Source of the DNA: Candidatus Parcubacteria bacterium
Lineage (GTDB): Bacteria > Patescibacteriota > Minisyncoccia > UBA6257 > 2-01-FULL-56-20
Assembly: GCA_027450205.1 (NCBI GenBank)
Contig: DAIDJL010000003.1
Location: 1-51,644, forward strand
Direction of reading: 5' to 3'
Length of the DNA: 51,644 nucleotides
In this document: positions 1 through 51,644 of the stretch, piece by piece
Position numbering within the stretch: the stretch's first letter is position 1
Layout of the letters: every line of letters starts with the position of its first letter
Made by a program: the position numbers and the translations under genes
Notes under the pieces: generated by a model
What the model was told of the DNA's origin: nothing
Seen by the model: the letters and a program-made list of their open reading frames with translations, nothing else
The model's database searches: none

Positions 1-141
1 CATACGCAATGCCGGAAGGTTTGTTGATGGTGAGGTTGGGGAGGTAGAGGCCATAAGTGCCGTCGATGATCTGGGTACCGGTGCCGTTCATAACAAGGTT
101 TGTGGTCCCGGTCGCGGATGATGCCCAATAGGTCTCATTGG
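1..141 (+). repeat. Terminal direct repeat, copy 1 (identical to 51504..51644)
   Basis: Read by eye: bases 1..141 (catacgcaatgccggaaggtttgttgatgg...ataggtctcattgg) are base-for-base identical to the last 141 bases of the window. Confidence 0.95.
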
Positions 142-1828
142 CGATATTCCCTTTGGCATCGATCTCACCGCCAAGGAGGGAGATGGTGCTGTAATTGGTG
201 GCAAGCGTCGTCGTCCCCTCCGCGGTAAGGACCGTGCCGGTGGCGATGGTGAATTGGGCGCTCACCGGGCCATAGGCGGAGTCATTTGCCCCAAAGACAA
301 GATTGTTGAACGTAGAAGATCCGGAGATGGCGGCATATATATTGAGCGTCGTGCCGGGGCCGGGAACACCAATATATCCGAATGTCACCGTGCTTGTTCC
401 GGGATTCATAGGGGTGGCGTTCACATTCGTGAAATTGCCGGTGATCCGGACATCTCCCTGAAGCGTGACGGAGCCGGAGGATTTCTGAATGGTGAAATTA
501 GGGAGCAAAAGATAGTCCTGACTGCTTGCTCCTATCGTATCGTCCCCTACGATCTGGGTACCCGTGCCCGTAAGGACGATGGGCACCGTGCTGGTAGTGA
601 ACCCGGGGACATGCGATGCTTCGATATTGCCCTGGACATCAATCGCGCCGCCGCCCGACAGCTGGAGTGTCGTGTAATTGGTAACCTCCATAAAATACCC
701 CTGCGCGGTAAGCACGGTGCCGGTGGCGATGGTGAAAATACCAGAGGTAGCATTGGCATTATTACTCACTGCAAACACCAGATTATAGAATGTGGATGAT
801 CCTGTCATGACCGGATTTACCACAAGGCTCCCGCTGGGAAGATTTTCACCAAATCCGGTAATGCTCCCCGGTCCGAAGATCACCGTAGACGTCCCGGGAT
901 TCATGGGGGTGGTATTCGTGTTGGTAAAGTTACCCGCAATACCGATATTCCCCGCAAGCACGATGGTGCCGGTGCTCTTGGTGATAGTGAGATCAGGCAG
1001 CATCACCGAATCCGCGGAACCGCCACCGGCAACGGTATCATCTCCAATGATCTGATTTCCTGATCCGTCAAGCACGATGCTCACCGTTCCCGTGGCATAC
1101 CCGGCGGCATATGATGCCTCAACATTGCCCTGCACATTGATCTGTCCGCCCCCCAAAAGACTGAATCCTCCCCATGCATTAAGGATGTACAGATACCCCT
1201 GCGCGGTAAGCGTGGTGCCGGTGGCGATGGTAAGAGCGGGAATGGATGAATTGTTCCCGATCTGCAGATTGTTGAATGTCGCGGATCCGCTCACGACAGG
1301 AATAGAGCCCGTAGGGTTGAAAAGCGTAAGACCGCCGCCGTTCTGGAACGTGCCTCCGGAAAACGTGGAGCTTGCCTGGAGCATAAGCGTCCCCGCCGTG
1401 CTCGTGAAGGTCCCGCCGGTCAGGGAGAAGACGCCGTTGTCCGTGATGGCGTCGGTGGAAGCGGATCCCTGGAAGGTACCGGCAGATTGGGAGTATCCCG
1501 CCGTGCCGATCGTCACCGTGTTGCCGGATCCCTGGGTGATCGTGCCCGTATAGCCGGAGACGACAGAGATGCCTCCGACCGTGATGCTTGTATTGATCGT
1601 CGCGTTCGCCGTGCTGGATGCGGAGAAGAGAGCCGTGTCGGATACACCGGGAACGACACCTCCCGACCAGTTGCTGGCGGTATTCCAGCTGCCGGCGGAG
1701 GGGGCGACCCAGGTAATCGTCGCAGCATGGGCCATTCCCGCATATGCCATACCGAGGAAAGAGAATGCAAAAAAGAACGGGAGGAAAAGACCCCGGCGGA
1801 AGAACGAAAAATCACGGAAGGATCTCAT
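1..1828 (-). CDS. Giant secreted repeat (beta-helix-like) surface protein, N-terminal 609 codons; frame is open to the left window edge
   Basis: Absent from the ORF track because it has no in-window stop. Manual minus-strand translation from the ATG at 1828 gives MRSFRDFSFFRRGLFLPFFFAFSFLGMAYAGMAHA-ATITW, a signal peptide. Repeated modules follow (TIATGTxLTAQGY...GTGTQI...NFTNxNxTPMNPGTSTV) with no stop down to base 1. The last codons (NGTGTQIIDGTYGLYLPNLTINKPSGIAY) equal the start of ORF 50083..51594. Confidence 0.8.
   Translation of the reverse strand, partial: MRSFRDFSFFRRGLFLPFFFAFSFLGMAYAGMAHAATITWVAPSAGSWNTASNWSGGVVPGVSDTALFSASSTANATINTSITVGGISVVSGYTGTITQGSGNTVTIGTAGYSQSAGTFQGSASTDAITDNGVFSLTGGTFTSTAGTLMLQASSTFSGGTFQNGGGLTLFNPTGSIPVVSGSATFNNLQIGNNSSIPALTIATGTTLTAQGYLYILNAWGGFSLLGGGQINVQGNVEASYAAGYATGTVSIVLDGSGNQIIGDDTVAGGGSADSVMLPDLTITKSTGTIVLAGNIGIAGNFTNTNTTPMNPGTSTVIFGPGSITGFGENLPSGSLVVNPVMTGSSTFYNLVFAVSNNANATSGIFTIATGTVLTAQGYFMEVTNYTTLQLSGGGAIDVQGNIEASHVPGFTTSTVPIVLTGTGTQIVGDDTIGASSQDYLLLPNFTIQKSSGSVTLQGDVRITGNFTNVNATPMNPGTSTVTFGYIGVPGPGTTLNIYAAISGSSTFNNLVFGANDSAYGPVSAQFTIATGTVLTAEGTTTLATNYSTISLLGGEIDAKGNIANETYWASSATGTTNLVMNGTGTQIIDGTYGLYLPNLTINKPSGIAY
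60..1300 (-). repeat. Three tandem, diverged ~480-500-nt (~160-166 aa) coding modules inside the giant surface-protein gene
   Basis: The plus-strand motif gtgccggtggcgatggt recurs near 236-250, 716-732 and 1216-1232. The peptide pattern is repeated three times: TIATGT-LTA-GY, G-IDVQGN-EAS, GTGTQI-GDDT, LP-TI-KS-G, GNFTN-N-TPMNPGTSTV-FG. Confidence 0.65.
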
Positions 1829-1876
1829 ATGCTCTTTAGTATATCAAAGAGATCACTTGTCAACTACCCCTTCCCC

Positions 1877-4800
1877 CTACCCGTGCGTCCCAATATACCG
1901 CCTCGTAAGCGGTCCGAAGAATCCGGTGGGAGGAAGTCCTGCGGAGGATTGGAATTTGATGAGGGCATCTTTGGTGGCAGGGCCGAAGAATTCCGTCTCA
2001 TAGCCCAGGGATCCTGCATAGGTGGGGGTGGTAACGATGGGATATCCATGGGTGTTCAGATAGTGCTGGAGGGATGCAACCTCGGGATCACGGTCTCCGA
2101 GGGAGAGGTTCTTGGTGAAGGAGGTAGTGGGGGCGGCACAGAGGGAGCTGATGGATGAAGAAAGAGAGATGCCTTTGGTCTCTGCCTGGGAGACGAGGGA
2201 GCAAAGCTCTTTCGTGAGAGAGAGAAGCTCTGCTTCCAGAGAGGCGGTGGAGGAGCTTTGGGTAAGGGTGGAAGAAGAGAGCTGGGAGCCCGTGCCGGAG
2301 GAGGAAGCAGAAGAGGATGAAGCGGTGCTGGTGCTCGTGCTTGTGGTCGGAGGGGCATAGTAGCCACCACCACCACCTCCGCCCGAGGAACCGCCACCCG
2401 AGGAGCCGGAGCCGCCACCGCCCGAAGAAGGAGCGGAGGATGGATTGGAAATGGGCGCGGTGGCGATATTCAAAACCAATGTCGCGCTATTCGTTGCTGC
2501 GCTATTCGTTGCAAAAATGGATATTGAATATGTGCCCGATACGGTGGGCGTTCCTGAAATGATGCCTGACGATGTATTTATTGTAAGTCCCGCAGGCAAT
2601 CCGGTAGCATTGTAACTTATTGGACCATTCGATGCCGCAATCTGATAGGAGAAATAAGATCCTTCAGTCGCGGAAGCAGAAAGCGGACTTGAAATAACAG
2701 GAGAAGATTGGGTCGCTGAAGGTGCGGAGGAATATTGATATGCTCCCGCATCCCACACGCCGGAGGAGGGGCGGGAAATATACGCCCGTGCGGGCAGAAT
2801 GACGGAATGAGTTGATTGATCGTACCCCACTCCATACGTGGTATCGTTGCATAAAGAAGACAGGCTTTCACCCGAGCTAAGCACCATCGAACAGTAACTC
2901 GATAGATTCGCCCCCGCGCCTATCGTGGGAGATCCCGATGTAGGAGAAAATACAAAAGCCTGGGCGATATCCATTCCGAGCGCATTCGCGCTATCGAGAG
3001 GAACGGAAACATTATTTGATTGCGTACAATTCGAACCGCAGGGATCAATGATTACCCTGCTCTGGGTGCAATCATGAATGCCTGGATCGCCAAGGCAGCT
3101 GACATAATAATTATTTTCGTAATCGCAGTGCCCATATCCGGCGGGACATCCCGACATCGGGCCGAGCGGGAACAATCCGGGGATCGAACCATTCGGATCC
3201 GGACCTCCTTCAATCGTATTATTCCATACATCAACCGACCCCGCAGTGCCACCTCCGCCACCCGGTGGATAACTAAGCTCGATCACGCTGTTCGATGTAA
3301 TATCTGCGAAAACATTGTTCCATACGTATTCTGTCGATCCGACGGGAGGGGTAAGCATTAAGGGAACCCCCGGCTTGATTCCCAGCATCACATTATTATC
3401 AACGACCGCGTACGGCGCATCGCCCAATCCCTCCATGCCATTCGAGTGAGCGGTGGGATTGATGGAAATACGCTCGTTTTCAAACGTATTTCCACTAAGC
3501 TCCTGAAATCCTCCGAGATAATAGCTCGCCACGTACCGTACGAAATTATTTTTGATGATCGCCGGCCCTTGATAAAATGCGGTGAGCGAACCAAGACAAT
3601 CAGTATAGGTCGATGTTGTGTTGTTGTTTTGCGCATTGATCGGACAATTCGGCTGGTTTTGCACCAGAGCAGTGTCCCATCCATCGATCACATTATCCTC
3701 AAACGTCATACCGGTACTATTGGGATAGCCCTGAATGCTCGTGAACGTTCCAGAGTCCCATCCCCCGATCACCGTACACGGAGTAGTCGCACATTCATTG
3801 CTTATCGCATCTACGATCTTTCCGTATCCATCGGTCAAACTTACCTGATTACCACTGATCGACGCGACAATGGGCCCGTTGTTTGCAAAAGGAAGAACGC
3901 ACCCCAAGCAGGCGATGCCGATCGGTTCCCCTACGACCACTCCGTTCATACTCCCGGTGATAGTAAGAATATTGCTCCCTTGCGCAATAGTTCCTTGGGT
4001 GTCAAGCGGCGTCGGATCGATCCATGCGTGATAATAGATATTTTTTACGTCGCCGTAACTCGTATATTGGGGAGCTCCTATCGCTTCGCCGGAGCCTTCC
4101 GAAGGAGGAGGATTATAATGGTTCCTGATCTCGAATCCGGAAATGGTCACGTAGTTCGGAGTGAAGAATATCATCGTCCCGGGATGAGGACCTCCTGTCG
4201 GGGCGACATTGGAACCGGTGCACCCGGGAAGATTGTTGGCCGGGGGAGCCGACACCTTGCATCCGTCGAACACCGGACGGTTCCACCCGTTCGGACATGA
4301 AGCAGTGTTATACCAGGATTTATCCCCGTCTCCCAGAAAATTCAAACCGGCGGATGCGGTCGTAATAGTGGCGTAATATCCCGTATTGTTCGAATATCCC
4401 TGCGGCCCGATCGTCCACGAAAAACTGGAGTTTGTCCATACGTCGCACCCCTTGAAGATAAAGGTGTCCCCCGGCAAGCTGTTGGGTCCGTATGCCGCGG
4501 CATTCCCCGTGGCGTCATTCATGCCAGGAGCATGGGCCCATGGGCCCGTATTGCCTGTTGTATGCGTTTTTTCCATACCATCCCAGCTATCATTTCCCCC
4601 GCTCGAAGAAATATAATAGGTATTGTGCGAAAGCGTCGTAGCCGATACCGGCGCGGATTGTCCGGAGATATTGCTCGATGTATCATATGCGGCAACCGTG
4701 TATGAATATGCCGTGGAATTCTTCAGCCCGGTGTCCACAAAAACAGTGCCGGTGGCATTGCCGACCTCGGTCCCGTTCCGGTAAATAAGATACCCCGCCA

Positions 4801-5662
4801 CCGCGACGTTGTCCGTGGAAGCGGTCCACGATAAGGCGATCTGATTTGCGGAATTCACCTGCGCCGAAAGGCCGGTCGGAACCGATGGCGGCGTAGTATC
4901 GTTGCTCCCGCCGGATGCACTCGCTTTGAATGTCGCTACCGCTATGACCGGAGCGGCATCGGCGGAACCATACGCTATCGAAGTCGTCGCGTTGGCCAGC
5001 GGCGATCCTATCGTCTCATATTCGCATGCGCTCTCCCCGTTGGAACCGCCGTTCGGGATCACATACCCGCTTGCTGCGGTGAACACATTGGGAACCGTCG
5101 CATGAGCGGCAGCGCACGCGATCACCACCTCCGACGTGGAAGTATTATTTGTGGAAAAAGGGCCGGATACCGCGGCCATCGTTCCCGGACCCTGACCGAC
5201 CGCGACCGCATCGAGGGGCGCGTTGATATCCGCAGAGGTGAATTGGAGTACCGTGATGCCGGTATCGCTCGTCAGATTCGCATTGCAGGTGACAGTATCC
5301 GAAAGGGACCCTTTGATATTCTTCGCATAGAATATGGCGATCGCATTATGATAGTTCGCGTTGAAAGTGCTGGTCGCGAGCACGAACTGGTTACCGGCGG
5401 TATCGGTAACAGAAGTACCGGAAAGATCGCCACCGGCACCGCATCCTACCACCAGAAGATTTCCCGATATTGCATTGACGGCAACGGAAACATTCCCCGG
5501 ACTGTTATTATATATCTCGTTCGACGTTGCATTGGAAAAAAGAGGTCCCCCCGATCCAAATGCCTGCCGATGGAAGAAAAAAACAAAGAATAATACTGCC
5601 ATTATTCCTCCGGCGGCGGACGCTTTCCATATTACCCGGCAAATATCAGATCTAATAAACAT
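1877..5662 (-). CDS. Large secreted cell-surface protein (1261 aa) with FN3, right-handed beta-helix-like region, putative Ig domain, G/S low-complexity linker and C-terminal peptidoglycan-binding domain
   Basis: N-terminal TM/signal segment (AAGGIMAVLFFVFFF). FN3-like stretch PPSVPTGLSAQVNSANQIALSWTASTDNVAVAGYLIYRNG. Ig-like stretch SYQIAASNGPISYNATGLPAGLTINTSSGIISGTPTVSGTY. C-terminal PG_binding_1-like stretch GDRDPEVASLQHYLNTHGY...GPATKDALIKFQSSAGLPPTG. Confidence 0.85.
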   Translation of the reverse strand: MFIRSDICRVIWKASAAGGIMAVLFFVFFFHRQAFGSGGPLFSNATSNEIYNNSPGNVSVAVNAISGNLLVVGCGAGGDLSGTSVTDTAGNQFVLATSTFNANYHNAIAIFYAKNIKGSLSDTVTCNANLTSDTGITVLQFTSADINAPLDAVAVGQGPGTMAAVSGPFSTNNTSTSEVVIACAAAHATVPNVFTAASGYVIPNGGSNGESACEYETIGSPLANATTSIAYGSADAAPVIAVATFKASASGGSNDTTPPSVPTGLSAQVNSANQIALSWTASTDNVAVAGYLIYRNGTEVGNATGTVFVDTGLKNSTAYSYTVAAYDTSSNISGQSAPVSATTLSHNTYYISSSGGNDSWDGMEKTHTTGNTGPWAHAPGMNDATGNAAAYGPNSLPGDTFIFKGCDVWTNSSFSWTIGPQGYSNNTGYYATITTASAGLNFLGDGDKSWYNTASCPNGWNRPVFDGCKVSAPPANNLPGCTGSNVAPTGGPHPGTMIFFTPNYVTISGFEIRNHYNPPPSEGSGEAIGAPQYTSYGDVKNIYYHAWIDPTPLDTQGTIAQGSNILTITGSMNGVVVGEPIGIACLGCVLPFANNGPIVASISGNQVSLTDGYGKIVDAISNECATTPCTVIGGWDSGTFTSIQGYPNSTGMTFEDNVIDGWDTALVQNQPNCPINAQNNNTTSTYTDCLGSLTAFYQGPAIIKNNFVRYVASYYLGGFQELSGNTFENERISINPTAHSNGMEGLGDAPYAVVDNNVMLGIKPGVPLMLTPPVGSTEYVWNNVFADITSNSVIELSYPPGGGGGTAGSVDVWNNTIEGGPDPNGSIPGLFPLGPMSGCPAGYGHCDYENNYYVSCLGDPGIHDCTQSRVIIDPCGSNCTQSNNVSVPLDSANALGMDIAQAFVFSPTSGSPTIGAGANLSSYCSMVLSSGESLSSLCNDTTYGVGYDQSTHSVILPARAYISRPSSGVWDAGAYQYSSAPSATQSSPVISSPLSASATEGSYFSYQIAASNGPISYNATGLPAGLTINTSSGIISGTPTVSGTYSISIFATNSAATNSATLVLNIATAPISNPSSAPSSGGGGSGSSGGGSSGGGGGGGYYAPPTTSTSTSTASSSSASSSGTGSQLSSSTLTQSSSTASLEAELLSLTKELCSLVSQAETKGISLSSSISSLCAAPTTSFTKNLSLGDRDPEVASLQHYLNTHGYPIVTTPTYAGSLGYETEFFGPATKDALIKFQSSAGLPPTGFFGPLTRRYIGTHG

Positions 5663-5748: not shown

Positions 5749-6765
5749 TTATTTCTTTCTCCGTATCACTTTTTTCGCCGCCGCCGCGATGTCCTTCGGC
5801 ATCATGCGATATTTTTTAATGAGCTCATCCGGCGCACCCGACTCGCCAAACGTATCCTGCATGCCGATGAACTCGATGGGTACCGGCGCATATTTCGCCA
5901 GTACCTCGGCGACCGCACCTCCCAAACCCCCGCTCACCTGATGCTCTTCCACGGTGACCACCGCGCCCGCCTTTTTTGCCAACTCGACGATCTTCTTATC
6001 ATCAATAGGTTTTATAGATGAACAATTCAAGACGATTGCGCCGATCTTCTCATCCTCTTCCAAAGCGCGCGCGGCGAGGAGTGCGTTATACAGCAAACCG
6101 CCGCAGCCGATTATCAACACTTCCGGCTTCTTCGCCGGGCCCGCGGCGGCGGAAGGCAGCCAGAATATCTCCGCCTTGCCCGGCGTATACGGCGTTTCAT
6201 CCGTCGTCATGATCGGCGTCTTCTCGCGCTGGAAGCGCAGATATACCGGACCGTACACCTGCTCTGCGGCGATCGTCGCCCTATGCGCCTCCAGGGCATC
6301 GCACGGAACGAACACTTTCATGTTCGGCATCGCGCGCATGATGGCGATGTCTTCCGTTGCCTGATGCGTCGCGCCGTCGGGGCCGACGGATATGCCGGCG
6401 TGATGGCCCGCGATCTTCACGTTCGCGTCGTTATACGCGACCGTCGTGCGGATCTGTTCCCAATTCCTGCCCGGCGAAAATGTTGCGTACGACGCGATGA
6501 ACGGGATCTTTCCGGTAACGCCCATGCCTGCGGCGACCGTCGCCATATTCTGTTCGGCGACGCCAAGCTCGAAGAACCGTTCGGGATATTTTTTGGCGAA
6601 CGCCTCCGTGCGCGTGGACTCGGTGAGGTCGGCGCAGAGCGCGACGACATTCGGATTCGCATCACCGGCAGCGACAAGCCCCGTTCCATAACCGTCGCGC
6701 GTCGGCGCCTGTGCGACGTCATCGTCAAAAAGATGCGGATTCAGTTTTATGTCGGGATTCAGCAT
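5749..6765 (-). CDS. Transketolase, C-terminal (pyrimidine-binding) subunit
   Basis: 338 aa with typical motifs: FFELGVAEQNMATVAAGMG, GPDGATHQATEDIAIMRAMPNM. Confidence 0.9.
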   Translation of the reverse strand: MLNPDIKLNPHLFDDDVAQAPTRDGYGTGLVAAGDANPNVVALCADLTESTRTEAFAKKYPERFFELGVAEQNMATVAAGMGVTGKIPFIASYATFSPGRNWEQIRTTVAYNDANVKIAGHHAGISVGPDGATHQATEDIAIMRAMPNMKVFVPCDALEAHRATIAAEQVYGPVYLRFQREKTPIMTTDETPYTPGKAEIFWLPSAAAGPAKKPEVLIIGCGGLLYNALLAARALEEDEKIGAIVLNCSSIKPIDDKKIVELAKKAGAVVTVEEHQVSGGLGGAVAEVLAKYAPVPIEFIGMQDTFGESGAPDELIKKYRMMPKDIAAAAKKVIRRKK

Positions 6766-6814
6766 TGTTCTATTATTTTAGCATACCGGATGTCCCTCCT
6801 GCGCCGCATTTCCC

Positions 6815-7453
6815 CTAGTCGAAGCTCAGCGTCTGCACGATCATGTGCGCGATGGCGTTGTTGTTCGCGGGCGATGCTATATTGGGATTCGGGTCGGACA
6901 CCGGAAAGTCAAAACGCAGCGCGACGGTGCCGTGCGCCACATATATCTGCTCGGCATCGCGGTCGAACTCGAACACATGAAAAAGTTCGTATGCGCCGTA
7001 TCCATTCACGGCCGTGATATAATTGGATGCGAACTGCGGCGTTATTGTAGGCGCGGGCCCGTTCTTGGCGTTCGCCGCGTCCTGGGCACGGTCATTCGCG
7101 AGAAGCTGATGCACGTATTCGGCAGATGAAAGCGATCGCGGATTCTGCTCCATAGAGATATATATCGTATAGGTCGTCGTGCCGGACAGGGGGTTGCCGA
7201 GCGCGACAAAAGGAGTTTCCGCCGCAAGACCGCCCATGAATATCTTCCAGTTTTGAGGATATCGGATGGAAAATCCATACTGCGCGTTATGATAGGCCTG
7301 CCACCCGGATATATCGATCGCATTCGCGACGTTGCCATTCTGGCGCTGTAGCACCATGACCTGCCCGACCGCCCGCGCCGCAAAATATACGAGCACTGCA
7401 GTGGCGCCGACGACCACGATCAGTATCGCCCAGATCTCTTTGCGACGGATCAC
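6815..7453 (-). CDS. Hypothetical membrane-anchored extracytoplasmic protein
   Basis: One N-terminal TM (IWAILIVVVGATAVLVYFAA) followed by a soluble domain. The ORF track starts it at 7495. A GTG at 7453 overlaps the upstream TGA (GTGA coupling), so it is the preferred start. Confidence 0.6.
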   Translation of the reverse strand: MIRRKEIWAILIVVVGATAVLVYFAARAVGQVMVLQRQNGNVANAIDISGWQAYHNAQYGFSIRYPQNWKIFMGGLAAETPFVALGNPLSGTTTYTIYISMEQNPRSLSSAEYVHQLLANDRAQDAANAKNGPAPTITPQFASNYITAVNGYGAYELFHVFEFDRDAEQIYVAHGTVALRFDFPVSDPNPNIASPANNNAIAHMIVQTLSFD

Positions 7454-7986
7454 GTGTTTGACGAATGACTTTTTTGGTATCGCTGAATGAGCCACATGCT
7501 CCCGCCGATCACGAGCACCGCAATCACAAGTCCGATGAAGAATTTCAGCTGGTCATCGATGCTCCCCCATCCGCGCATATAACCGTACATAATGCTCCAC
7601 AGCCCGGCCACCATGATGCCGATGGGAACGGCGCGGGACGCGAGCACCACGGCAAACACCAGAAAGAACCCTATCGCGAACATGACGATGCCCACGATAT
7701 TCGCGATAATGAACAGATTCCTGTTATACACGTCCATCTGGTCCTGATATGCCTTCTGCTGCTGCTCGAACTTTTGCTGCGCGGCCTGCTGCTGCGCGTC
7801 GATCTGCTTATTATTCTGGATACACGCCGTATCATTCGGCGCGCACGATGTGATCGGCGCCATCACGGGATAACTTGGATAATTCGGCGCGATCGGTTCC
7901 GGATAAAATGCCTTGATACCAAGATTGATGAGCGCACCCAAAATGATCGCGGTCGCTATGCCCAATACCACATTTACAGCTTTCAT
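7450..7986 (-). CDS. Hypothetical integral membrane protein (about 4 TM, Gln-rich loop)
   Basis: 178-aa ORF with hydrophobic segments. It lies in the same operon orientation between the two transketolase halves. Confidence 0.6.
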   Translation of the reverse strand: MKAVNVVLGIATAIILGALINLGIKAFYPEPIAPNYPSYPVMAPITSCAPNDTACIQNNKQIDAQQQAAQQKFEQQQKAYQDQMDVYNRNLFIIANIVGIVMFAIGFFLVFAVVLASRAVPIGIMVAGLWSIMYGYMRGWGSIDDQLKFFIGLVIAVLVIGGSMWLIQRYQKSHSSNT

Positions 7987-8003
7987 GATTTTAATGGATT
8001 AAT

Positions 8004-8864
8004 TTATTGATGCTCGCTCTGTATCTTGTGCTGCAGCGTGCGCAGCTCGTCGAGCGCTTTTTCCGCCTCGCCGTGCTTGAACGGCTTGGAATGCCACAGA
8101 TAGTCGTTCTCCATGAAATCCACGCCCTTACCGGGAATCGTATGCGCGATGATCACGGTCGGCTGTTCATGGACGGCCTTTGCTTCCGCAGCGGCGGCGA
8201 TGATCTCCTCAAAATTGTGGCCATCGATCTCGAGCACGTGCCAGTTGAACGAACGATATTTATCCGCGAACGGCTCGAGGGGCATGATCTTCTCCGTGAA
8301 GCCGTCAATCTGGATATTATTGCGGTCAACAACGACCGTGAGGTTGCTCAACCGGTTCTTTCCTGCGAACATCACCGCTTCCCACGTGTTGCCTTCCTCG
8401 TGCTCGCCGTCGGAGGTAATACAGTAGATCTGATATTTTTTCGCGTCGAGGCGGGCCGCGAGCGCAATGCCGGACGCCTGCGCAATGCCGCTGCCGAGCG
8501 GGCCGGACGTGGTCTCAACGCCGGGCAGGACGCCGCGATGCGGATGGCCCTGCAGGCGCGTTCCCAGCCGGCGCAGCGTCTTTAGTTCCTCCACCGGAAA
8601 ATATCCCGCATGCGCAAGCGCGGCGTACTGGATCGGGCAAATATGGCCGTTCGATAGCACAAGCCGGTCGCGGTCCGGCCAATTCGGCTTCTTCGGGTCA
8701 TGATTCAAAATATGAAAATAGAACGCGGTAAATATCTCCGCCATGTCGAGCGGCCCCGCAATATGCCCCGACCCCGCATGCGAGACCATCTTGATCACAT
8801 CCTCGCGCAAACGCGTGGCCATAAGCTCCATCTCCTTCAGTTTTTTTTCAGTGAGCGATTCCAT
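8004..8864 (-). CDS. Transketolase, N-terminal (thiamine-diphosphate-binding) subunit
   Basis: 286 aa; motifs SGHIAGPLDMAEI, LSNGHICPIQYAALA, LQGHPH, SDGEHEEGNTWEA. Confidence 0.9.
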   Translation of the reverse strand: MESLTEKKLKEMELMATRLREDVIKMVSHAGSGHIAGPLDMAEIFTAFYFHILNHDPKKPNWPDRDRLVLSNGHICPIQYAALAHAGYFPVEELKTLRRLGTRLQGHPHRGVLPGVETTSGPLGSGIAQASGIALAARLDAKKYQIYCITSDGEHEEGNTWEAVMFAGKNRLSNLTVVVDRNNIQIDGFTEKIMPLEPFADKYRSFNWHVLEIDGHNFEEIIAAAAEAKAVHEQPTVIIAHTIPGKGVDFMENDYLWHSKPFKHGEAEKALDELRTLQHKIQSEHQ

Positions 8865-8903
8865 TTTTTAAGTGATTACCAAACGCCAATAGGATTTTGG
8901 ATT

Positions 8904-43845: not shown

Positions 43846-43977
43846 ATACAGCCATTTTATCACGAAAAGCAAAGCAAAAGAAACTGTGCATACCCTGTTT
43901 CGGATGGTCTTGGTCGCTTGCGTACCTGAGTTGCCGAAACCAACATTCCGGACGGTGCGGCCGCGAACGGCGTAAAC

Positions 43978-44003
43978 AAAGGCCGCTCTCTCGAGCGGCC
44001 TTT
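43978..44003 (-). terminator. Palindromic rho-independent terminator after ybeY
   Basis: aaaggccgctc-tctc-gagcggccttt, an 11-bp stem flanked by T-rich sequence on the minus strand (tttgttta). Confidence 0.7.
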
Positions 44004-44011
44004 GTTTCAAC

Positions 44012-44386
44012 TTATTTTAATTTTTTCAACAGTTCAGCCTCCAACCCCTCCATTTTGGCAATGTCCGCCTTTTTTTTATGATCATATCCAAGCAGATGGA
44101 GCACGCCATGCAAGAGCAACGCCTTCGCGCGCTCAGGTGACCGGCGCAAAATATCGCGGTTTAAATAAATTTCGCCAAGATATCGTTTTTTGGTCTCCGG
44201 ATGGGGGAAATGCGCCGGCTCGGGAAATGAAAGCACGTTCGGTTCGGTCTTTTTTTTGAAAAAGCGCGCCTTAAGCGCCGCTATTTTTTCATTATCAAGC
44301 AAAATGATGTCCACCGACGCCGCGCGAACGCGAAGCATCCTCAATATCCTGTCCGCAAGGCGCGCCAGTTTATGCTCGTTCCACAT
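44012..44386 (-). CDS. ybeY: rRNA maturation endoribonuclease YbeY
   Basis: 124 aa; HGVLHLLGYDH metal-binding motif. Confidence 0.9.
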   Translation of the reverse strand: MWNEHKLARLADRILRMLRVRAASVDIILLDNEKIAALKARFFKKKTEPNVLSFPEPAHFPHPETKKRYLGEIYLNRDILRRSPERAKALLLHGVLHLLGYDHKKKADIAKMEGLEAELLKKLK

Positions 44387-44822
44387 CGCGGATCACATCC
44401 CCCACCGTCTTGCCGTCGGCGCGTCCTTTTACAACCTTCATCGTTTCTTTCATCAGCGAACTGAAATCGTTCGCACCATTCGCCTTGGCCGCTTTCACGA
44501 TCGCCACGATCTCATCGCGGGAAAGTTCGGCGGGGAGATATTCATAGAGTACCTTAAGGTCGCCCTCCTCCTTTGCGATAAGATCATCGCGCTTGCCCTG
44601 CCGGAAAAGCTCCAAAGAATCCTTGCGCTTTTTTGCTTCTTTTTGGAGGATCATCACCACTTCTTCGTCGCCAAGCGATGCCTGCGGATCCTTAAGTGCC
44701 TTTTCTTTTTGTGCCGCATTAAGTGACGCGAGTGTAAAACGCAGCGCTTCAAGACGCGCTTTGTCGCCGCTCTTCATGGCGGACCTCATATCGTCGTTTA
44801 TTTTTTGAAAAAGGGACATCAA
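44370..44822 (-). CDS. GatB/YqeY domain protein
   Basis: 150 aa; the pattern L...I..DM..AMK.GDK.RL..LR and the C-terminal G.ADGK.V are typical of YqeY. Confidence 0.8.
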   Translation of the reverse strand: MMSLFQKINDDMRSAMKSGDKARLEALRFTLASLNAAQKEKALKDPQASLGDEEVVMILQKEAKKRKDSLELFRQGKRDDLIAKEEGDLKVLYEYLPAELSRDEIVAIVKAAKANGANDFSSLMKETMKVVKGRADGKTVGDVIRDVERA

Positions 44823-44824
44823 AT

Positions 44825-45040
44825 CTAGATGAGGCCGAGCTTCTTCTGGCGCTCCACTTCGGCTTTCTTTTCCTCGCGATGGATCGCGGATGAGCGGCGC
44901 TTGATGCGGCTGATCGTCCGGGTATGGAACTTGCGATGGCGAACCTCTTTAACGATACCGCTCCGCTTCACTTTGCGCGTGAAGGTATACAAAAGCGACT
45001 GCCCCGACTCCCCTTCTTTTTTTCGTGCTTCTATTGCCAT
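44825..45040 (-). CDS. rpsU: 30S ribosomal protein S21
   Basis: MAIEARKKEGESGQSLLYTFTRKVKRSGIVKEVRHRKFH...; small and basic. The classic rpsU-yqeY-ybeY context supports it. The track ORF has a 12-codon N-terminal extension. Confidence 0.8.
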   Translation of the reverse strand: MAIEARKKEGESGQSLLYTFTRKVKRSGIVKEVRHRKFHTRTISRIKRRSSAIHREEKKAEVERQKKLGLI

Positions 45041-45183
45041 AGGAGACAGTATATATGAGGAATGGTGGTTTTGCAAGATACGAAGCAGCTAGGGCGGGGC
45101 ACTATCCCGCCTACGGGAAATGTTATTAAAATTTGATTAAAAAGTTTTTGACTTCTATTTTGCGCGGCATATCCTTAAGTGAC

Positions 45184-45595: not shown

Positions 45596-46909
45596 TTATT
45601 TCTGCCGCTTCTTTATCTCGTCCACCAGCTTCTCCAACGGCACTGCCTCTTGCAATCCGTTCGTAAGGTCACGGACGATGATGCTGTTCTCGTAAAGCTC
45701 TTTTTGTCCCAGGATCAGAGCGAGCGCGATGCCTTCCCGGTCCGCAACTTTAAGCTGTGCCGCGAGCGAGTCTTTGGAAAGCGACTCGGCGACCAAAAAG
45801 CCGCGGCCGCGAAGATCTTTCAAAATGGCAAATGCTTTCTTTTTTGCAAGGCTCCCCGCGTGCGCGAGAAACACGCGCTTGGCTGATTTCCCGTTGAACA
45901 CGATCTCCTTCGCGCGCAGGACGGCGATCAGCCGCTCCACGCCGCATGCCCCTCCGACAGCGGGAGTGAGGTGGCCGCCGATCGTTTCCATTAGGTAATC
46001 GTACCGCCCGCCCGCGGGAAGCGCGCCGATCTGCGCCTCATTCCCTTCCGCATACATTTCAAACACCGTGCGACTGTAGTAATCCAACCCGCGCACCAGA
46101 CGGTGGTCGAGCTCATACGGGATCTTCACTTCATCCAGATATTCAAGCACGGACTTAAAATGCGCGCTGCATGTAACGCACAATTTGTCGAGAAAATTCG
46201 GCGCCTTTTCCTTGAGCGCCTCGCAGCCCGGCTCCTTGCAGTCGAGTAATTTGAGCGGATTCACCGCAAGGCGGCGTTTGCAATCCTCGCACAGCTGTTT
46301 CTCGTGATTTTTGTAATAAGCGGTCAACTGCTTCTTATAGATCGGCCGGCAGATGCGGCATCCGATGGAATTCACCTTTACGAGGGAATTTTTGATCCTT
46401 AGCTCGTTCAAAAGGTCGTAGAACAGCGCAATGATCTCGGCGTCGTAGATCGGGTCGTTCACGCCGCCCAGCGTCTCAAAATCGATCTGCGTGAACTGTC
46501 GCGCGCGGCCGAGCTGCGGACGCTCATGGCGGAAGATCGGCCCCATCGCAAAAAGCTTCTGCGGCTGGCCGAGGCGCGAAAGCCCGTGCTGCATGTATGC
46601 GCGGGAAATACCCGGCGTGTATTCCGGGCGCAGCGCCAAAAAGTCGCCGCCCTTCGTCTTCAGCGTATACATCTCCTTCTGCACCACATCGCTCTCCTCG
46701 CCGGACGTCTTATTATAGAGTTCCGCGAATTCCAAAACAGGAGGCTCGATGCGTGAAAATCCATAGGCGGACGCAAGCGATCGTACCACGCTTTCTATCT
46801 TTTCCCAATACGGCTCGTCGGAAGGCAGAACGTCATGCATTCCTTTGGCGGACTGGAACGTGCGCACAACTTCCTTTGGCTTTTCTTTTTCTTGTTGGGA
46901 TGAGGGCAT
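45596..46909 (-). CDS. hisS: Histidine--tRNA ligase
   Basis: 437 aa; class II motifs (GMHDVLP, LRPEYTPG, FRHERPQLGRARQFTQ, GGRYD). Confidence 0.95.
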   Translation of the reverse strand: MPSSQQEKEKPKEVVRTFQSAKGMHDVLPSDEPYWEKIESVVRSLASAYGFSRIEPPVLEFAELYNKTSGEESDVVQKEMYTLKTKGGDFLALRPEYTPGISRAYMQHGLSRLGQPQKLFAMGPIFRHERPQLGRARQFTQIDFETLGGVNDPIYDAEIIALFYDLLNELRIKNSLVKVNSIGCRICRPIYKKQLTAYYKNHEKQLCEDCKRRLAVNPLKLLDCKEPGCEALKEKAPNFLDKLCVTCSAHFKSVLEYLDEVKIPYELDHRLVRGLDYYSRTVFEMYAEGNEAQIGALPAGGRYDYLMETIGGHLTPAVGGACGVERLIAVLRAKEIVFNGKSAKRVFLAHAGSLAKKKAFAILKDLRGRGFLVAESLSKDSLAAQLKVADREGIALALILGQKELYENSIIVRDLTNGLQEAVPLEKLVDEIKKRQK

Positions 46910-46917
46910 GGCGGTGG

Positions 46918-47520
46918 TTACGAAACGAATGAAAGCGACGATGTTGAAACGCTATAATGCGGCGCGCTGAATATTTGTATGGCGCCAAGCGGCCAGAGCC
47001 GGAACCGGACGAGGCCAACGATATCGCTCGCGGGAAGCGGACCCCAGCTGCGCGAGTCATAGCTCACCGCACGGTTGTCCCCCATCATAAAGTACGTGCT
47101 CGATGACAGCGTGACATCCTCGTTCCCCGACGTGACCGTGCCTTTCGGCAAATACGATTCATCGAGCATAAACCCGTTCGGATGCTGCTGATTATAGATC
47201 GTCACGGTATTGTTCTTGATCACCACGCGCTCGCCGGGCAGGCCGATGATGCGCTTGATAAGATAAGTGGACTGGTCGCTCACGTCATGGAACACCACCA
47301 CCTCGCCGCGCTCCGGCGGGCGGATGCGGTAGGTCAGTTCATCGGTCAGTACGTAATCGCCGTTCGAAAACGTGGGCACCATGCTGGTGCCGCTCACCAG
47401 GAAGGGCTGCACGAGGAACGTCCGGACGATGAACACCGCCCCGACCGCAATGACCGCAATCTCCAGAACTTCAAGAAGTGATGCAAGGAATTTTCTCATT
47501 CGTCCGTAATGTGTACTCAT
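46918..47520 (-). CDS. lepB: Signal peptidase I
   Basis: 200 aa; SGTSMVPT (catalytic Ser), KRIIGLPGE (Lys), GDNRAVSYDSR. Confidence 0.9.
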   Translation of the reverse strand: MSTHYGRMRKFLASLLEVLEIAVIAVGAVFIVRTFLVQPFLVSGTSMVPTFSNGDYVLTDELTYRIRPPERGEVVVFHDVSDQSTYLIKRIIGLPGERVVIKNNTVTIYNQQHPNGFMLDESYLPKGTVTSGNEDVTLSSSTYFMMGDNRAVSYDSRSWGPLPASDIVGLVRFRLWPLGAIQIFSAPHYSVSTSSLSFVS

Positions 47521-47550
47521 TATATAGAAGATGGAATATAATAATCAAGC

Positions 47551-48096
47551 ATGGACCAAACGCTCATCATCGGATTGGGGAATCCCGGCCCGGAACTCGG
47601 GGAAACCTACCATAACGCGGGCGCGCTCGCAGTGCAGTGGCTTGCGGAACATTCCGCGGCAGAGGCGGGTTCGGACACCCCGACATTCCGCGCGCATAAC
47701 GGCACATTCGCGTACGCAAAGCTTGGCGGGTATATATTCATCCGGCCGCTCGTCTTCATGAACGAATCCGGCCGCGCGGTGCGTGATGCCATGAAAGCAT
47801 TTAGGGCTGATGCAGACCGTGTCGTCGTCATTCACGACGACAGCGATATCCCGATCGGTGAATTCAAACGCGCAGCCGGCGGCGGTTCCGCCGGGCATAA
47901 AGGAATCAATTCCATCATCGACCATATCCATACCGAGGCGTTCACGCGCATCCGCATCGGCATCCGCGAACCCAACGAAACACGGCGAAAAAAAGCTGCC
48001 GATTTCGTACTCTCACCGATCACCGCCGCCGACAAAAAAACGCTCGATGGCGTTTTTCAAAAAATCTTTGAAACAGCGCTTCCCGCGCCATTTTAG
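47551..48096 (+). CDS. pth: Peptidyl-tRNA hydrolase
   Basis: 181 aa; IIGLGNPG...YHNAG, HDDSDIP, GHKGINS. Confidence 0.9.
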   Translation: MDQTLIIGLGNPGPELGETYHNAGALAVQWLAEHSAAEAGSDTPTFRAHNGTFAYAKLGGYIFIRPLVFMNESGRAVRDAMKAFRADADRVVVIHDDSDIPIGEFKRAAGGGSAGHKGINSIIDHIHTEAFTRIRIGIREPNETRRKKAADFVLSPITAADKKTLDGVFQKIFETALPAPF

Positions 48097-49640
48097 AATC
48101 CCAACGACAGCGGGAACGTCATGGAAAACGTGTAGCTCCCGGCGCTTCCCTGAATATTGTTCAAGGGGAGGTTCACGGTGCCAAAATGCGGGTCGCTCTG
48201 GATCGCGGCTCTGAATGCGACAATGTCCGTTTCGGCTCTCGCGGCACCGGCGACGAGTATGGGAACGCCCGGCGTCTGGAAAGAGACGTGATTGAGCGTA
48301 ATATTATTCGCCGCCGCCGCGCGCTGGATTTCGGTTATCACCCGGTAATTCCTGCCGATCCGGGATTCGGCATTCGCAACCAGCGCGACCGATTGGTTGA
48401 ATGCCGTGGAAGACGCCTCAAGCGCCGCCATTACCGCCGCCTCCTGCTGGTTGAACGATGGCTGCGCCGTAATGCCGGCCCTGGTGGTGGCCAAAAAGTT
48501 GTCGGCGATGGCGGCGATGGCAATGAGGCATCCGAGCACCACGGGAACAAGCACGCGCCACAGCGCGACAAAATCGAGCAACTGCTCGCGATGGAACGTA
48601 TCAATCGCACCTTCTCCCGAAAGATTGATCTCTTTATCTTTTGATGCGCCGTTCGCGCCCCATAGACTGCATCCCAGCGCCACCATCCATTCCAGGGAAA
48701 TTTCCTGATCCATCGTAAGCGTCATGCGGATGACCGGCAACGGCGCCGGGATCGACGCACGAACGGCATCTTCGGCTTCGGCCTCGAATGCCGACGCCGC
48801 AATAATGACCGCCGCAATGGGCTCCGGCCAGTGTTGGCCGTAAAAATTCATCACCTGGCGCAGGTTCCCCTCAAGCGTCTCCTTGAACTTTGCGACGGAT
48901 ATCTGCCCCTTCTCGTCGGTAAGCGAATTCCACTGGGTGGCATATTCAAAATAAAGCTTCCCCTTCCGGATAACCAAAAAATCAATGCCTGAATTGTCGA
49001 TATCAAGCAGAAGATACGACGTATTGATGTCCGCGCCCGTACCCCGCTGACGGAAGATCCGCGTAAGCGCGAGCGCGCGGGACTCGACGCCAACCGTGAT
49101 GAATCCCGCCGCGTACAGCGCCTGCGTGATCGCGTCCACAAGTGCCTTGTCCACGAACGCCGCTGCAACCTCGGCCTTAAGGCCCGTTGCGTCGCTTCCC
49201 AGCATTTCCCATCCAAAATATGTCTGCGTAATATCCACAGGCGAGAGCATCCGCACATTCAGGTCAACCGCACCCGTAAGATCCTTGCCCTGCATGATCG
49301 GCAACGTAAAAACCTGGCTGTACATATTGACCGAGCTCAGCGAAACAATGACGTTCATCTTCTTTTTCTTGTTCCTTGAGAACGGCATCTTCAGTCGGAG
49401 TTCCCGCAGGGCAGCGATAAATGCCTGGTCGTCCTTGATCTTTCCCTTTTCCATAACGCCCGGCGCGAGGCGCACCGCGGCGAGCTGCCAGATTTTTCCG
49501 TCAAAATACACCAGGCGAAGCACCTGGTCGCTCACCTCCAATCCGCCCATTCGCGGACGGACCGAGAGCAAAGATATGATTTTTTTGAAAATGTCGGCGG
49601 ATTGCATTGAATACAATAAAAGTATACCACGCCGCTTCAA
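48093..49640 (-). CDS. Type IV pilus assembly protein, PilM-like actin-fold ATPase fused to a TM segment and PilN-like C-terminus
   Basis: 515 aa. PilM-like N-terminus (GLEVSDQVLRLV..., LLLDIDNSGIDFLVI). TM segment VLVPVVLGCLIAIAAI. Then an extracytoplasmic tail. Confidence 0.65.
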   Translation of the reverse strand: MKRRGILLLYSMQSADIFKKIISLLSVRPRMGGLEVSDQVLRLVYFDGKIWQLAAVRLAPGVMEKGKIKDDQAFIAALRELRLKMPFSRNKKKKMNVIVSLSSVNMYSQVFTLPIMQGKDLTGAVDLNVRMLSPVDITQTYFGWEMLGSDATGLKAEVAAAFVDKALVDAITQALYAAGFITVGVESRALALTRIFRQRGTGADINTSYLLLDIDNSGIDFLVIRKGKLYFEYATQWNSLTDEKGQISVAKFKETLEGNLRQVMNFYGQHWPEPIAAVIIAASAFEAEAEDAVRASIPAPLPVIRMTLTMDQEISLEWMVALGCSLWGANGASKDKEINLSGEGAIDTFHREQLLDFVALWRVLVPVVLGCLIAIAAIADNFLATTRAGITAQPSFNQQEAAVMAALEASSTAFNQSVALVANAESRIGRNYRVITEIQRAAAANNITLNHVSFQTPGVPILVAGAARAETDIVAFRAAIQSDPHFGTVNLPLNNIQGSAGSYTFSMTFPLSLGF

Positions 49641-49650
49641 CCTACAATCA

Positions 49651-50064
49651 CTAAATATTCTGGACCGAAAGCACGGTCACTGACGAGGTTTGCGCATCCT
49701 CTATGGCGACCACCTCAACGGTCCTTTTATGGAGCTGCACCGTCGCCGAGGAAATGATGGTAACAAACCCCGCAGAAGGATCGTTCTGCATTACGGTAAC
49801 ATTCGCCGAATAATTTCCGACATTGACCGTATACCCGGAAGAAGCGAAAGCGGCATTCCGGTCAAGCTGAAGCAACGCATCCTGAATGCCGGACATCGCC
49901 AAAAATTGGGCATTGCTTGATGCGGCATATCCATAACCGGTATCCACCAGCGTGCTGGCCAGAAACGCAACAAGCAGCACCGATATGGATATGATGGCTC
50001 CGATAAGCAGCACAAGAGCCAAAAATGATTGCCCGCCGCGTGAAAATTTTTTTTTAGAGATCAT
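49651..50064 (-). CDS. Pilin/pseudopilin-like membrane-anchored protein
   Basis: 137 aa. The N-terminus KKFSRGGQSFLALVLLIGAIISISVLL resembles a prepilin leader plus hydrophobic helix, without the canonical Glu+5. It lies between the giant adhesin and PilMN. Confidence 0.5.
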   Translation of the reverse strand: MISKKKFSRGGQSFLALVLLIGAIISISVLLVAFLASTLVDTGYGYAASSNAQFLAMSGIQDALLQLDRNAAFASSGYTVNVGNYSANVTVMQNDPSAGFVTIISSATVQLHKRTVEVVAIEDAQTSSVTVLSVQNI

Positions 50065-50082
50065 TATTGTTGTTGCTGTCCG

Positions 50083-51644
50083 TCACGGACTCCAGTTCAC
50101 AACGACGCTACTCACGACCGGAGTGGAAAGCTGGGCAGCATCGGCAAACAAAACGATGCGATAGCGGAAATAACGATATCCCGAAAACAAAGCATATCCC
50201 GCGCCGCCAATATTACTCACAAGAGGAATGCTCGTTCCCGGAGGGGTGCCAAGGCCGAAATACGTCGTCGCGTCGCCGGAAGGGCCCTCAAAACTCCATG
50301 GGCCGCCGGAGGAATTGCTGACCGCGATCTGAAACCCGACATTCGTTCCGGCAGGCTCCGATCCGCTCCACTGCAAAGAGTTCAATTGTGCGCCGCCCGA
50401 AACCCCCGTATCGAACGTCGCCGAATCGAGCGTCCCCGACGCGGCATATCCTCTAAAGATCGGCGTCGCAAAGATCCCCATTATCGCTCCGTAATCCGTG
50501 GAAGTTGCGGCTGTCCACGTAGCCGCAATATTCATCTCCGTGGATGTCGCGATGTCTTCCGCATAGAGAGATTGATCGGAACCGTTATTTCCCATGGACA
50601 CCTCGGGGGTCCAGCCCGACCCGTCGACAGCGGTCGTAACAGCATCGAACGCCATCGTACCGAAATAAAGCTCGTTGGACGAATGCCCCATGGCATACTG
50701 CGATGTGATATTCGTCGCCGTGCCGGTATTATCGGTATTCGCACTATAGGAATCGAGCGTTGACGAAGGATCCATATCGGTATATTCGAACGCCGCCGCG
50801 GAAAGCGCCCCCCCGCTTGAACCGTTCGCCGTAATGGTAAAAGAGGACGTACTGTTGACGTTCTTTGCGTAGTATAAATCCAACCGCTCCGGAGCTGTAC
50901 CGAAGGTCGTTGACGCAACAAGCATATACGTATCGCTCGCATTGTCGGTGGGTGCATTGATGGCCTGCCCTCGCGACGACACCGCGACAAGGACCAGATC
51001 CCCCGCACGGGGAGCAAAGCCGAATGCGGGAAGAGCCAACTGAGTGACGCCCGACCCCGCTGCCGTTGACGTCTGCACGAGCTGCAACCGCGGCCCCGTG
51101 ACAAAATTCCAATTCGAACCGTTGTTGCCGCTGTTCACGCCGTTTGAAACGACGATCGGAGCGGTACCGCCCTGGTCCTGCACGTTGGCGTAGCGGATGA
51201 TGAATTTTCCCGTTCCCGACCAGGGCACCTGGCTGCCGGTCGTCGTGGAGTTGATAATGACATTGTCCGGGACGTTCGCAGTGCATGCAGCACTGCTGCC
51301 GTCGAAAAATACGAGGCCGTTGTTCACAACTCCAGCGCCGATGCTGAGTGTGGAACTCGCAAGAGGATAATCCGTCAGCCGCCCTCCGGGATCGACGGTC
51401 AATATCCCGTCGGACGTGAAAGAAACAGGACTCGTCCCCGTCGCAAGCTGGAGCTCCCCTTGGGCGATAGTGGTCAAAGCAGTGACTGAAACAGGTCCGT
51501 ATACATACGCAATGCCGGAAGGTTTGTTGATGGTGAGGTTGGGGAGGTAGAGGCCATAAGTGCCGTCGATGATCTGGGTACCGGTGCCGTTCATAACAAG
51601 GTTTGTGGTCCCGGTCGCGGATGATGCCCAATAGGTCTCATTGG
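50083..51644 (-). CDS. Giant surface protein, C-terminal part (frame open to the right window edge; joins in frame to 1..1828 through the 141-nt terminal repeat)
   Basis: The track ORF 50083..51594 begins MNGTGTQIIDG, but the frame continues upstream to the window end. 51504..51644 equals 1..141 and the codon phases agree. The joined gene is 3249 nt (1082 aa). Confidence 0.8.
   Translation of the reverse strand, partial: NETYWASSATGTTNLVMNGTGTQIIDGTYGLYLPNLTINKPSGIAYVYGPVSVTALTTIAQGELQLATGTSPVSFTSDGILTVDPGGRLTDYPLASSTLSIGAGVVNNGLVFFDGSSAACTANVPDNVIINSTTTGSQVPWSGTGKFIIRYANVQDQGGTAPIVVSNGVNSGNNGSNWNFVTGPRLQLVQTSTAAGSGVTQLALPAFGFAPRAGDLVLVAVSSRGQAINAPTDNASDTYMLVASTTFGTAPERLDLYYAKNVNSTSSFTITANGSSGGALSAAAFEYTDMDPSSTLDSYSANTDNTGTATNITSQYAMGHSSNELYFGTMAFDAVTTAVDGSGWTPEVSMGNNGSDQSLYAEDIATSTEMNIAATWTAATSTDYGAIMGIFATPIFRGYAASGTLDSATFDTGVSGGAQLNSLQWSGSEPAGTNVGFQIAVSNSSGGPWSFEGPSGDATTYFGLGTPPGTSIPLVSNIGGAGYALFSGYRYFRYRIVLFADAAQLSTPVVSSVVVNWSP
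51504..51644 (+). repeat. Terminal direct repeat, copy 2 (identical to 1..141)
   Basis: Direct comparison of the two window ends. Confidence 0.95.

Follow-up and report, generated by a model that had tools for sequence, protein, structure and literature searches.

A 51.5-kb contig of core genes closing within an adhesin gene in a Paceibacteria (CPR) bacterium: chromosomal block or essential mini-chromosome?

Identical ends and closure of the contig

The window analyzed here (the whole stretch of 51,644 nt) begins and ends with the same sequence, and it raises the question whether its essential genes lie on a small circle in the cell or on a chromosomal block that was closed during assembly. 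As the original prediction stated, the first 141 nt recur exactly, as a direct copy, in the last 141 nt. No prefix of the window longer than 141 nt matches its suffix, no 20-mer of this 141-mer was found elsewhere in the window, and a second copy with other flanks was absent from it. Such a match by chance is effectively impossible. When the ends were joined, a circle of 51,503 bp was obtained, and the two edge-truncated minus-strand ORFs fused in phase, as had also been predicted, into one gene of 1,082 codons that starts at 1828, passes through 1/51503 and stops at 50083-50085. The features at the junction are as follows:

1..141, terminal 141-nt identity, copy 1: end of adhesin repeat module 3; assembler k-mer overlap
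51504..51644, terminal 141-nt identity, copy 2: redundant after circularisation to 51,503 bp
1..1828, minus strand, junction adhesin, N-terminal 609 codons: signal peptide, N-domain, three modules
50083..51644, minus strand, junction adhesin, C-terminal part: conserved C-terminal domain ending VNWSP, with the stop at 50083-50085

The suggestion that 141 is an assembler k-mer length is supported by a circular mitochondrial genome that was published from a MEGAHIT contig with an artefactual 141-bp duplicate (PMC11572364). The exact, direct end identity seen here resembles that of a looped unitig of the MEGAHIT type, and the maximal overlap equals the default k-max of 141; related ENA contigs bear k141_* names. 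Loops of this kind usually represent plasmids, phages or complete small genomes, in contrast to the present housekeeping block. The first k nucleotides equal the last k and no longer overlap exists, which is the signature of a cyclic unitig at k = 141. By our own reasoning on edge-centric unitigs, this exact-k overlap agrees better with an isolated loop than with a contig bounded by repeats, which would produce it only if the shared stretch measured exactly 141 nt (a few per cent of cases at most, by our estimate), and it thus counts against a false closure. Two simpler sources of the overlap were rejected. Repeats within the gene do not account for it, given that the modules share only a repeat of ∼39 nt and that the 141-mer has no 20-mer in common with the rest of the window; a two-copy tandem duplication was rejected by graph logic (again our own reasoning), because its half-depth exits would escape pruning.

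The adhesin gene at the junction

The predicted signal peptide, three repeat modules and C-terminal domain of the joined gene were verified by alignment with full-length homologues. The protein, a secreted adhesin, consists of a signal peptide, an N-domain, three modules of ∼163 aa and a C-terminal domain ending VNWSP, and the 141-mer codes for the end of module 3 (∼aa 562-609). The module repeat, D2, lies at 212-250, 695-733 and 1193-1231, with copies of ∼39 nt that are 85-95% identical. Twelve homologues of 1,036-1,124 aa have the same architecture and are collinear with the fused protein from end to end at 44-57% identity; judged by these alignments, the fused gene is fully canonical. When the identities of the N- and C-terminal parts to 35 homologues were compared, together with sliding identity over 60 aa, a gradual change was observed with no break at the 141-mer. 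A canonical gene with no identity switch at this point may count against a false closure. Among the same 35 homologues, the proteins nearest to the N-terminal modules were of the PG_binding_1 type.

The adhesin gene is fast-evolving, and its family is repeat-rich and occupies several kinds of locus. A complete member of 899 aa lies outside the pilus loci, between secA and rpe-tktN on VFSW01025249.1. When a genome collection was scanned with the adhesin alignment, each of seven near-complete related genomes showed one locus with the C-terminal motifs of the family, which counts against a lineage with two such loci. Exact peptides of the adhesin, sought in a metagenome scan, gave no match.

Gene content, replicon functions and strand asymmetry

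All of the genes named in the original prediction were located, within the following arrangement:

1877..5662, minus strand, gene 1: surface protein of 1,261 aa (fn3, He_PIG, PG_binding_1), between tktC and the adhesin gene
5749..11061, minus strand, pentose-phosphate/glycolysis operon: tktC, 226-aa ORF, tktN, rpe, rpiB, gap
10030-11061, minus strand, gap
11144..21173, DUF192, SpoU, M23 peptidase, 207-aa ORF and LTD protein (minus); nrdA and nrdB (plus)
17388-20162, plus strand, nrdA
20184-21173, plus strand, nrdB
21939..22013, plus strand, tRNA-Asn(GTT), the only RNA gene found
27702..32351, minus strand, UbiA/CyoE-like prenyltransferase and quinol oxidase subunits III, I, II
40156..45076, rmuC (plus), then ftsZ, ftsA, ybeY, yqeY, rpsU (minus)
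41218-42552, minus strand, ftsZ
42598-44010, minus strand, ftsA
44825-45076, minus strand, rpsU
45596..50064, hisS, lepB (minus), pth (plus), pilM/N-like gene of 515 aa, g51 (137 aa)
45596-46909, minus strand, hisS
46918-47520, minus strand, lepB
47551-48096, plus strand, pth

The absence of rRNA, dnaA and partition genes from the scanned ORFs and RNA genes was likewise as predicted. No Rep or DnaA initiator was detected with Pfam, PHROGs and NCBIfam in the ORFs that were scanned, which comprised all called ORFs but the joined adhesin and some short ones of doubtful status. The scanned ORFs, including those with no Pfam match, contained no partition or segregation system of the ParAB type; they contained no integrase and no phage structural gene (terminase, portal or capsid), and the ORFs of unknown function gave no informative PHROG match. 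The only plasmid similarity was that of cyoB, at 70%. A phage or plasmid identity was rejected, given that no phage or plasmid genes and no plasmid similarity beyond cyoB were found. The 13 DnaA-like boxes (with at most one mismatch) were scattered, with no origin-like cluster, and iteron-like direct repeats were not found. Content of housekeeping genes only, with no replicon genes, counts for a chromosomal block.

On the plus strand, the GC skew at four-fold sites was negative whichever way the genes were oriented (-0.12 and -0.08). The same polarity was observed in 36 of the 45 genes round the whole circle, with no two-domain skew; 72% of the coding bases are on one strand. This asymmetry is the pattern of one replichore and counts for a chromosomal block, in a test that would miss a circle that is recent or replicates unidirectionally. 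No composition break was found along the contig.

Gene order in relatives and in a sister strain

Gene order was compared in long contigs or complete chromosomes, including chromosomes of 0.7-0.9 Mb: OY970354.1 (829 kb), a 726-kb contig (HisS 94% identical), a 217-kb contig and a further relative, here relative B. Orthologues in Paceibacterota MAGs are ∼87-98% identical and keep the order, and by these comparisons the content of the contig is ordinary core chromosome of Paceibacteria (CPR). The order shared by the relatives runs topA-dprA-rluD-pilin-pilB-pilC-[variable pilins/adhesins]-g51-pilMN-pth on the pilus side and continues pth-lepB-hisS-rpsU-yqeY-ybeY-ftsA-ftsZ-rmuC; the segment hisS-lepB-pth-pilM/N-g51 is kept across Paceibacteria, downstream of the adhesins of the pilus locus. 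The contig has the same order as the type IV pilus locus of Paceibacteria (adhesin-g51-pilMN-pth-lepB-hisS-rpsU-yqeY-ybeY-ftsA-ftsZ-rmuC) and differs from it in lacking pilB, pilC, the pilin gene and rluD-dprA-topA, and in that gene 1 and the tkt operon precede the adhesin. On OY970354.1, the type IV pilus locus contains partial homologues of gene 1. A PilC search for the pilus locus that belongs to the contig gave a candidate from NCBI with no nucleotide similarity to the window.

On the other side, positions 11144..21173 are collinear with relative B, where a different gene for a large surface protein has been inserted into the tkt operon. Beyond tktC, the two closest well-assembled relatives continue with pfkB-fba-x-rplY. 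Neither flank is present in the window, which is missing both the pilC-pilB-pilin-rluD-dprA-topA side and the pfkB-fba-rplY side, and in all relatives examined the block lies in the chromosome. The common gene order of the relatives, with its flanks missing here, counts for a chromosomal block.

A sister strain, ∼93% identical, is available from a separate assembly (GCA_009712145.1). Both closing adjacencies were found there: after tktC comes the N-terminus of the adhesin, and its C-terminus leads into g51-pilMN; gene 1 is absent. Since the sister strain has both joints independently, the closing adjacencies are not a one-off misjoin, and they count against a false closure; they imply either two paralogous adhesin loci or one gene that closes a real cycle. 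For each adjacency within the contig, support came from a relative or from the sister strain. Both sister-strain contigs end inside the adhesin gene, at its most conserved motifs. Such breaks are expected at points of an assembly graph where nearly identical copies or variants converge, and they count for a false closure. No overlap was found between the ends of these two contigs, VFSW01043450.1 and VFSW01044343.1, and the middle 1.4 kb of the adhesin is unassembled there.

Near-identical strains were seen to coexist in such samples: besides the sister strain, several related tkt operons occur in one metagenome.

Discussion

The reading that we favor, with a probability of about 0.55, is a chromosomal block whose closure is non-physical or non-autonomous. 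An assembler of the de Bruijn type at k = 141 would have printed a cyclic path, and the second copy of the 141-mer would not be biological. The path would represent ∼51.5 kb of the core chromosome of a Paceibacteria (CPR) bacterium, no replicon, and would close within the fast-evolving adhesin gene. We infer a lineage with two loci of the adhesin family, of which the first follows tktC and the second precedes g51; a false closure between two paralogous adhesin genes had been raised as a caveat in the original prediction. Both loci would contain the 141-mer, perhaps with the stretch between them duplicated or amplified, and the walk of the assembler would return to its start. A second copy near the tkt genes is plausible because a family member lies at secA/rpe-tktN on VFSW01025249.1 and because the tkt operon of relative B has received an insertion of its own. 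The contig shares with repeat-induced false circles its purely chromosomal content and a closure in a member of a repeat-rich, multi-locus family; it departs from them in that a plain unitig bounded by repeats needs the exact 141-nt repeat discussed above, of which the window holds no second copy.

The strongest alternative is a stable circular mini-chromosome of 51.5 kb with essential genes (ftsAZ, hisS, pth, lepB, rpsU, nrdAB and gap), conserved in the window strain and its one sister strain and dependent for replication on factors encoded outside it. A free mini-chromosome of essential genes is an unproven possibility, less likely than a repeat-driven assembly loop, and in this stable form we consider it unlikely. 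The exact-k overlap agrees with an isolated loop from which no other path leads out, as in the mitochondrial parallel (PMC11572364), the fused gene is canonical, and the closing adjacencies recur in the sister strain. The ancestral flanks (pilBC and pfkB-fba) are missing from the circle as they would be after excision, and related genomes usually carry a single member of the adhesin family. Against these points stand the lack of any initiator, partition system, DnaA-box cluster or plasmid similarity beyond that reported above, the single skew polarity (which a recent or unidirectional circle would escape), the chromosomal location of the block in all relatives and the unassembled middle of the sister adhesin gene. 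The essential mini-replicon considered in the original prediction gains some support from the isolated-loop signature and the two sister-strain joints, and is weakened by the relatives, the missing flanks, the skew and the absence of replicon functions.

Our search of the literature for essential mini-replicons in CPR bacteria found none. Plasmids of CPR bacteria are described as rarely studied; among the plasmids recovered, just 2.56% could be linked to CPR (PMC12023590). It is rather improbable that ∼50 kb of core genome is kept physically apart in this strain and in its ∼93% identical sister, on a circle that lacks genes for its own replication or partition. Such a circle would have arisen by excision between the adhesin region of the pilus locus and the end of the tkt operon, and its cargo would be ftsAZ, hisS, pth, lepB, rpsU, nrdAB, the pentose-phosphate operon and the quinol oxidase.

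A separate circle with essential core genes would resemble chromids and secondary chromosomes; known chromids are far larger and encode replication and partition systems of the plasmid type, which were not found in the contig.

Another artefact of the pipeline is quite improbable, for example contigs joined or circularised after assembly where their ends overlap by a k-mer, or a path that mixes strains living in the same sample. The coexistence of near-identical strains in such samples would allow it, but every internal adjacency is backed by a relative or the sister strain, and the contig has no composition break. Still less credible, and very improbable, is unequal crossing-over between direct adhesin paralogues that left the block amplified in tandem, to about six or more copies, or yielded a recombination product in abundance. 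The true exits would then be rarer than the hybrid joint, and the low-depth filter of the assembler would prune them. This reading would account for an isolated loop in the adhesin and a canonical hybrid gene while the block stays chromosomal, and the family is known at both kinds of locus, but it requires a pair of paralogues together with a high copy number, and large amplifications are unstable.

If the closure is a cycle in the graph only, as the favored reading of a chromosomal block holds, then circularity judged from overlapping ends must not be read as completeness or as evidence for an extrachromosomal element, and within its bin the contig is to be handled like any other piece of the chromosome. 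If, instead, a physical circle exists, an essential fragment of the chromosome would be kept as a small circle with no replicon genes of its own, for which we know of no precedent, and this would bear on genome organisation and segregation in ultra-small bacteria.

Terminal overlap and the fused adhesin gene

The two ends of the window were found to be identical in direct orientation (1-141 and 51504-51644), with a maximal prefix-suffix overlap of 141 nt, and no 20-mer of this repeat recurred elsewhere within the window. As had been predicted, closing the ends into a circle of 51,503 bp merged the truncated minus-strand ORFs at the two edges, in frame, into a single gene of 1,082 codons:

Start 1828, across the junction, stop 50083-50085, minus strand: junction adhesin gene, formed by ORF fusion on circularisation

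Its product comprises a signal peptide, an N-domain, three modules of ∼163 aa (the end of module 3 being encoded by the 141-mer) and a conserved C-terminal domain. The database search returned 142 relatives, and the proposed coherence of the gene over the junction was borne out by 12 of them (1,036-1,124 aa), which were collinear with the entire fused protein. Because these 12 align over the full length, junction included, the fused gene is a canonical member of the adhesin family.

The closing adjacencies in a sister strain

Metagenome GCA_009712145.1 contains two short contigs of a strain ∼93% identical to the window (∼96% in housekeeping genes). The features concerned are as follows:

VFSW01044343.1, window 46043-51578: from hisS to the C-terminal 497 codons of the adhesin, ending inside the 141-mer
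VFSW01043450.1, window 10911-5748 (from gap to tktC), then the adhesin N-terminus (window 1732-1509, 88.8% identity)
1877-5662, minus strand: gene 1 (3.8 kb), encoding a surface protein whose domains are fn3, He_PIG and PG_binding_1

Gene 1 is missing in the sister strain, where tktC directly precedes the adhesin gene (VFSW01043450.1); the signal-peptide region and spacer could not be aligned between the two, and the middle 1.4 kb of the sister adhesin was unassembled. Both closing adjacencies are thus present in an independent assembly, which rules out an idiosyncratic misjoin as the source of the closure. Two readings remain: separate adhesin loci after tktC and before g51 (a small gene of 137 aa), or one gene, and therefore a cyclic or tandem topology.

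Gene content

Gene identities were assigned by Pfam scans, and ORFs without a Pfam match were also scanned against PHROGs and NCBIfam, where they gave no informative match. All of the genes originally listed (ftsZ, ftsA, hisS, pth, lepB, rpsU, gap and nrdAB) were recovered, together with a split transketolase (tktN, tktC), rpe, rpiB, ybeY, yqeY, rmuC, the pilM/N-like gene (pilMN, 515 aa), g51, DUF192, SpoU, an M23 peptidase, an LTD protein, a HAD hydrolase, a DD-carboxypeptidase, a C39-like peptidase, a two-component system, a GGDEF protein, GH18, a HhH-GPD glycosylase and an RRM protein. The predicted absence of rRNA, dnaA and par genes also held: tRNA-Asn was the sole RNA gene in the window, which contains no rep, integrase or phage genes by Pfam, PHROGs or NCBIfam. 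Window proteins grouped with those of Candidatus Paceibacterota (∼87-98% identity), and megablast against plasmids gave cyoB only, at 70%.

At 27702-32351, this CPR contig also carries an aerobic respiratory-type module: a UbiA/CyoE prenyltransferase together with subunits II, I and III of a cyo-type quinol oxidase operon. A local GC dip at 24000-26400 (0.47-0.50 vs 0.55), with several small ORFs lacking family matches, may be recently acquired DNA. A pair of 124-nt repeats (38740-38863 and 39265-39388, 85% identical), accompanied by a plus-strand ORF (38337-38720), looks like a diversity-generating retroelement: at 16 of the 19 mismatched positions copy 1 has T and copy 2 has C, A or G, adenine-specific on the minus strand, and a 222-aa ORF (39260-39928, minus) has copy 2, the candidate variable repeat, as its 3' end. 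A bAvd-like ORF scored under the Pfam cut-off, and no reverse transcriptase was found within the window.

Synteny with relatives

Gene order was compared in relatives represented by a finished chromosome or a long contig: OY970354.1 (829 kb), a 726-kb contig (HisS 94% identical to that of the window), a 217-kb contig and a peat-bog relative (relative B). The common order is topA-dprA-rluD-pilin-pilB-pilC-(variable minor pilins/adhesins)-g51-pilMN-pth-lepB-hisS-rpsU-yqeY-ybeY-ftsA-ftsZ-...-rmuC-...-histidine kinase. Conservation is as strong on the opposite side (nrdB-nrdA-LTD-M23-...-gap-rpiB-rpe-tktN-tktC), which in the two closest well-assembled relatives continues past tktC into pfkB-fba-x-rplY. 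The window holds the entire block between these flanks without either flank; after tktC come gene 1, the adhesin gene and then g51. From gene order, the ancestral state of the block is chromosomal, and in the window the adhesin region alone bridges its two ends; the sequence is that of ordinary Paceibacteria chromosome.

In a more distant relative (Ga0255355_1000029, 88.9 kb), pth-lepB-hisS lies 2 kb from gap-rpiB-rpe-tktN, with ftsA-ftsZ another 7 kb beyond; judging by this arrangement, the blocks meeting in the window appear to be reshuffled within the clade.

Replicon features

On the plus strand, GC skew at four-fold degenerate sites was -0.12 for plus-strand genes and -0.08 for minus-strand genes; it was negative in 36 of 45 genes, the whole way round the circle, and the minus strand holds 72% of coding bases. 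This is a single-replichore pattern, unlike that of a bidirectionally replicating circle, and it is only suggestive, because a circle that is young or replicates in one direction would give the same pattern. DnaA-box-like sites were dispersed over the window (13 with ≤1 mismatch vs 6.8 expected), and neither an origin-like cluster nor iterons were found within it. A single perfect DnaA box (TTATCCACA) lies at 17277-17285, in the spacer upstream of nrdA.

Explanations of the closure

In an edge-centric de Bruijn graph, the printed form of a looped unitig repeats exactly k bases, k being the assembler's k-mer size (141 here). A repeat-bounded linear unitig has identical end k-mers only where the shared stretch is exactly k, repeats longer than k giving shorter end overlaps or none, and the exits of a two-copy tandem duplication stand at half depth and are left unpruned. 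By this reasoning on de Bruijn unitigs, the exact overlap favours an isolated loop (a circle or high-copy array), the alternative being a coincidence of a few per cent. The duplicated end, as originally proposed, is an artefact of assembly; a published MEGAHIT contig of a circular genome carries the same 141-bp artefact (PMC11572364).

Our preferred reading, at a probability of roughly 0.55, is that the block is chromosomal and that the closure reflects two adhesin loci sharing the 141-mer, one past tktC and the other ahead of g51, and not an autonomous circle. Consistent with two loci, another organism of the sister-strain metagenome has a complete family member of 899 aa between secA and rpe-tktN, away from pilus genes; relative B carries an unrelated surface protein of 862 aa between rpiB and rpe; N-terminal module cassettes are common to proteins with different C-termini; and both sister contigs end within the most conserved motifs of the adhesin gene. 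However, each of seven near-complete related genomes gave a single locus with the family C-terminal motifs, identity shows no switch at the 141-mer, and no second adhesin copy was found (the 141-mer was searched within the window). Because the exact overlap points to an isolated loop, an artefactual closure is not called proven. A stable mini-replicon would be such a loop, and we consider it unlikely; another pipeline artefact is slightly less probable again. Amplification between adhesin paralogues, which a high-copy array would fit, is improbable.

Surface-protein genes at other loci

The complete two-module member on VFSW01025249.1 (2723-5422) has secA on one side and rpe-tktN on the other, so the adhesin family is not confined to type IV pilus loci. 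The insert of relative B between rpiB and rpe (L072 2357-4960; L012-L015) encodes a Ser/Thr-rich secreted protein. Genes for large surface proteins appear to have inserted repeatedly into the pentose-phosphate operon.
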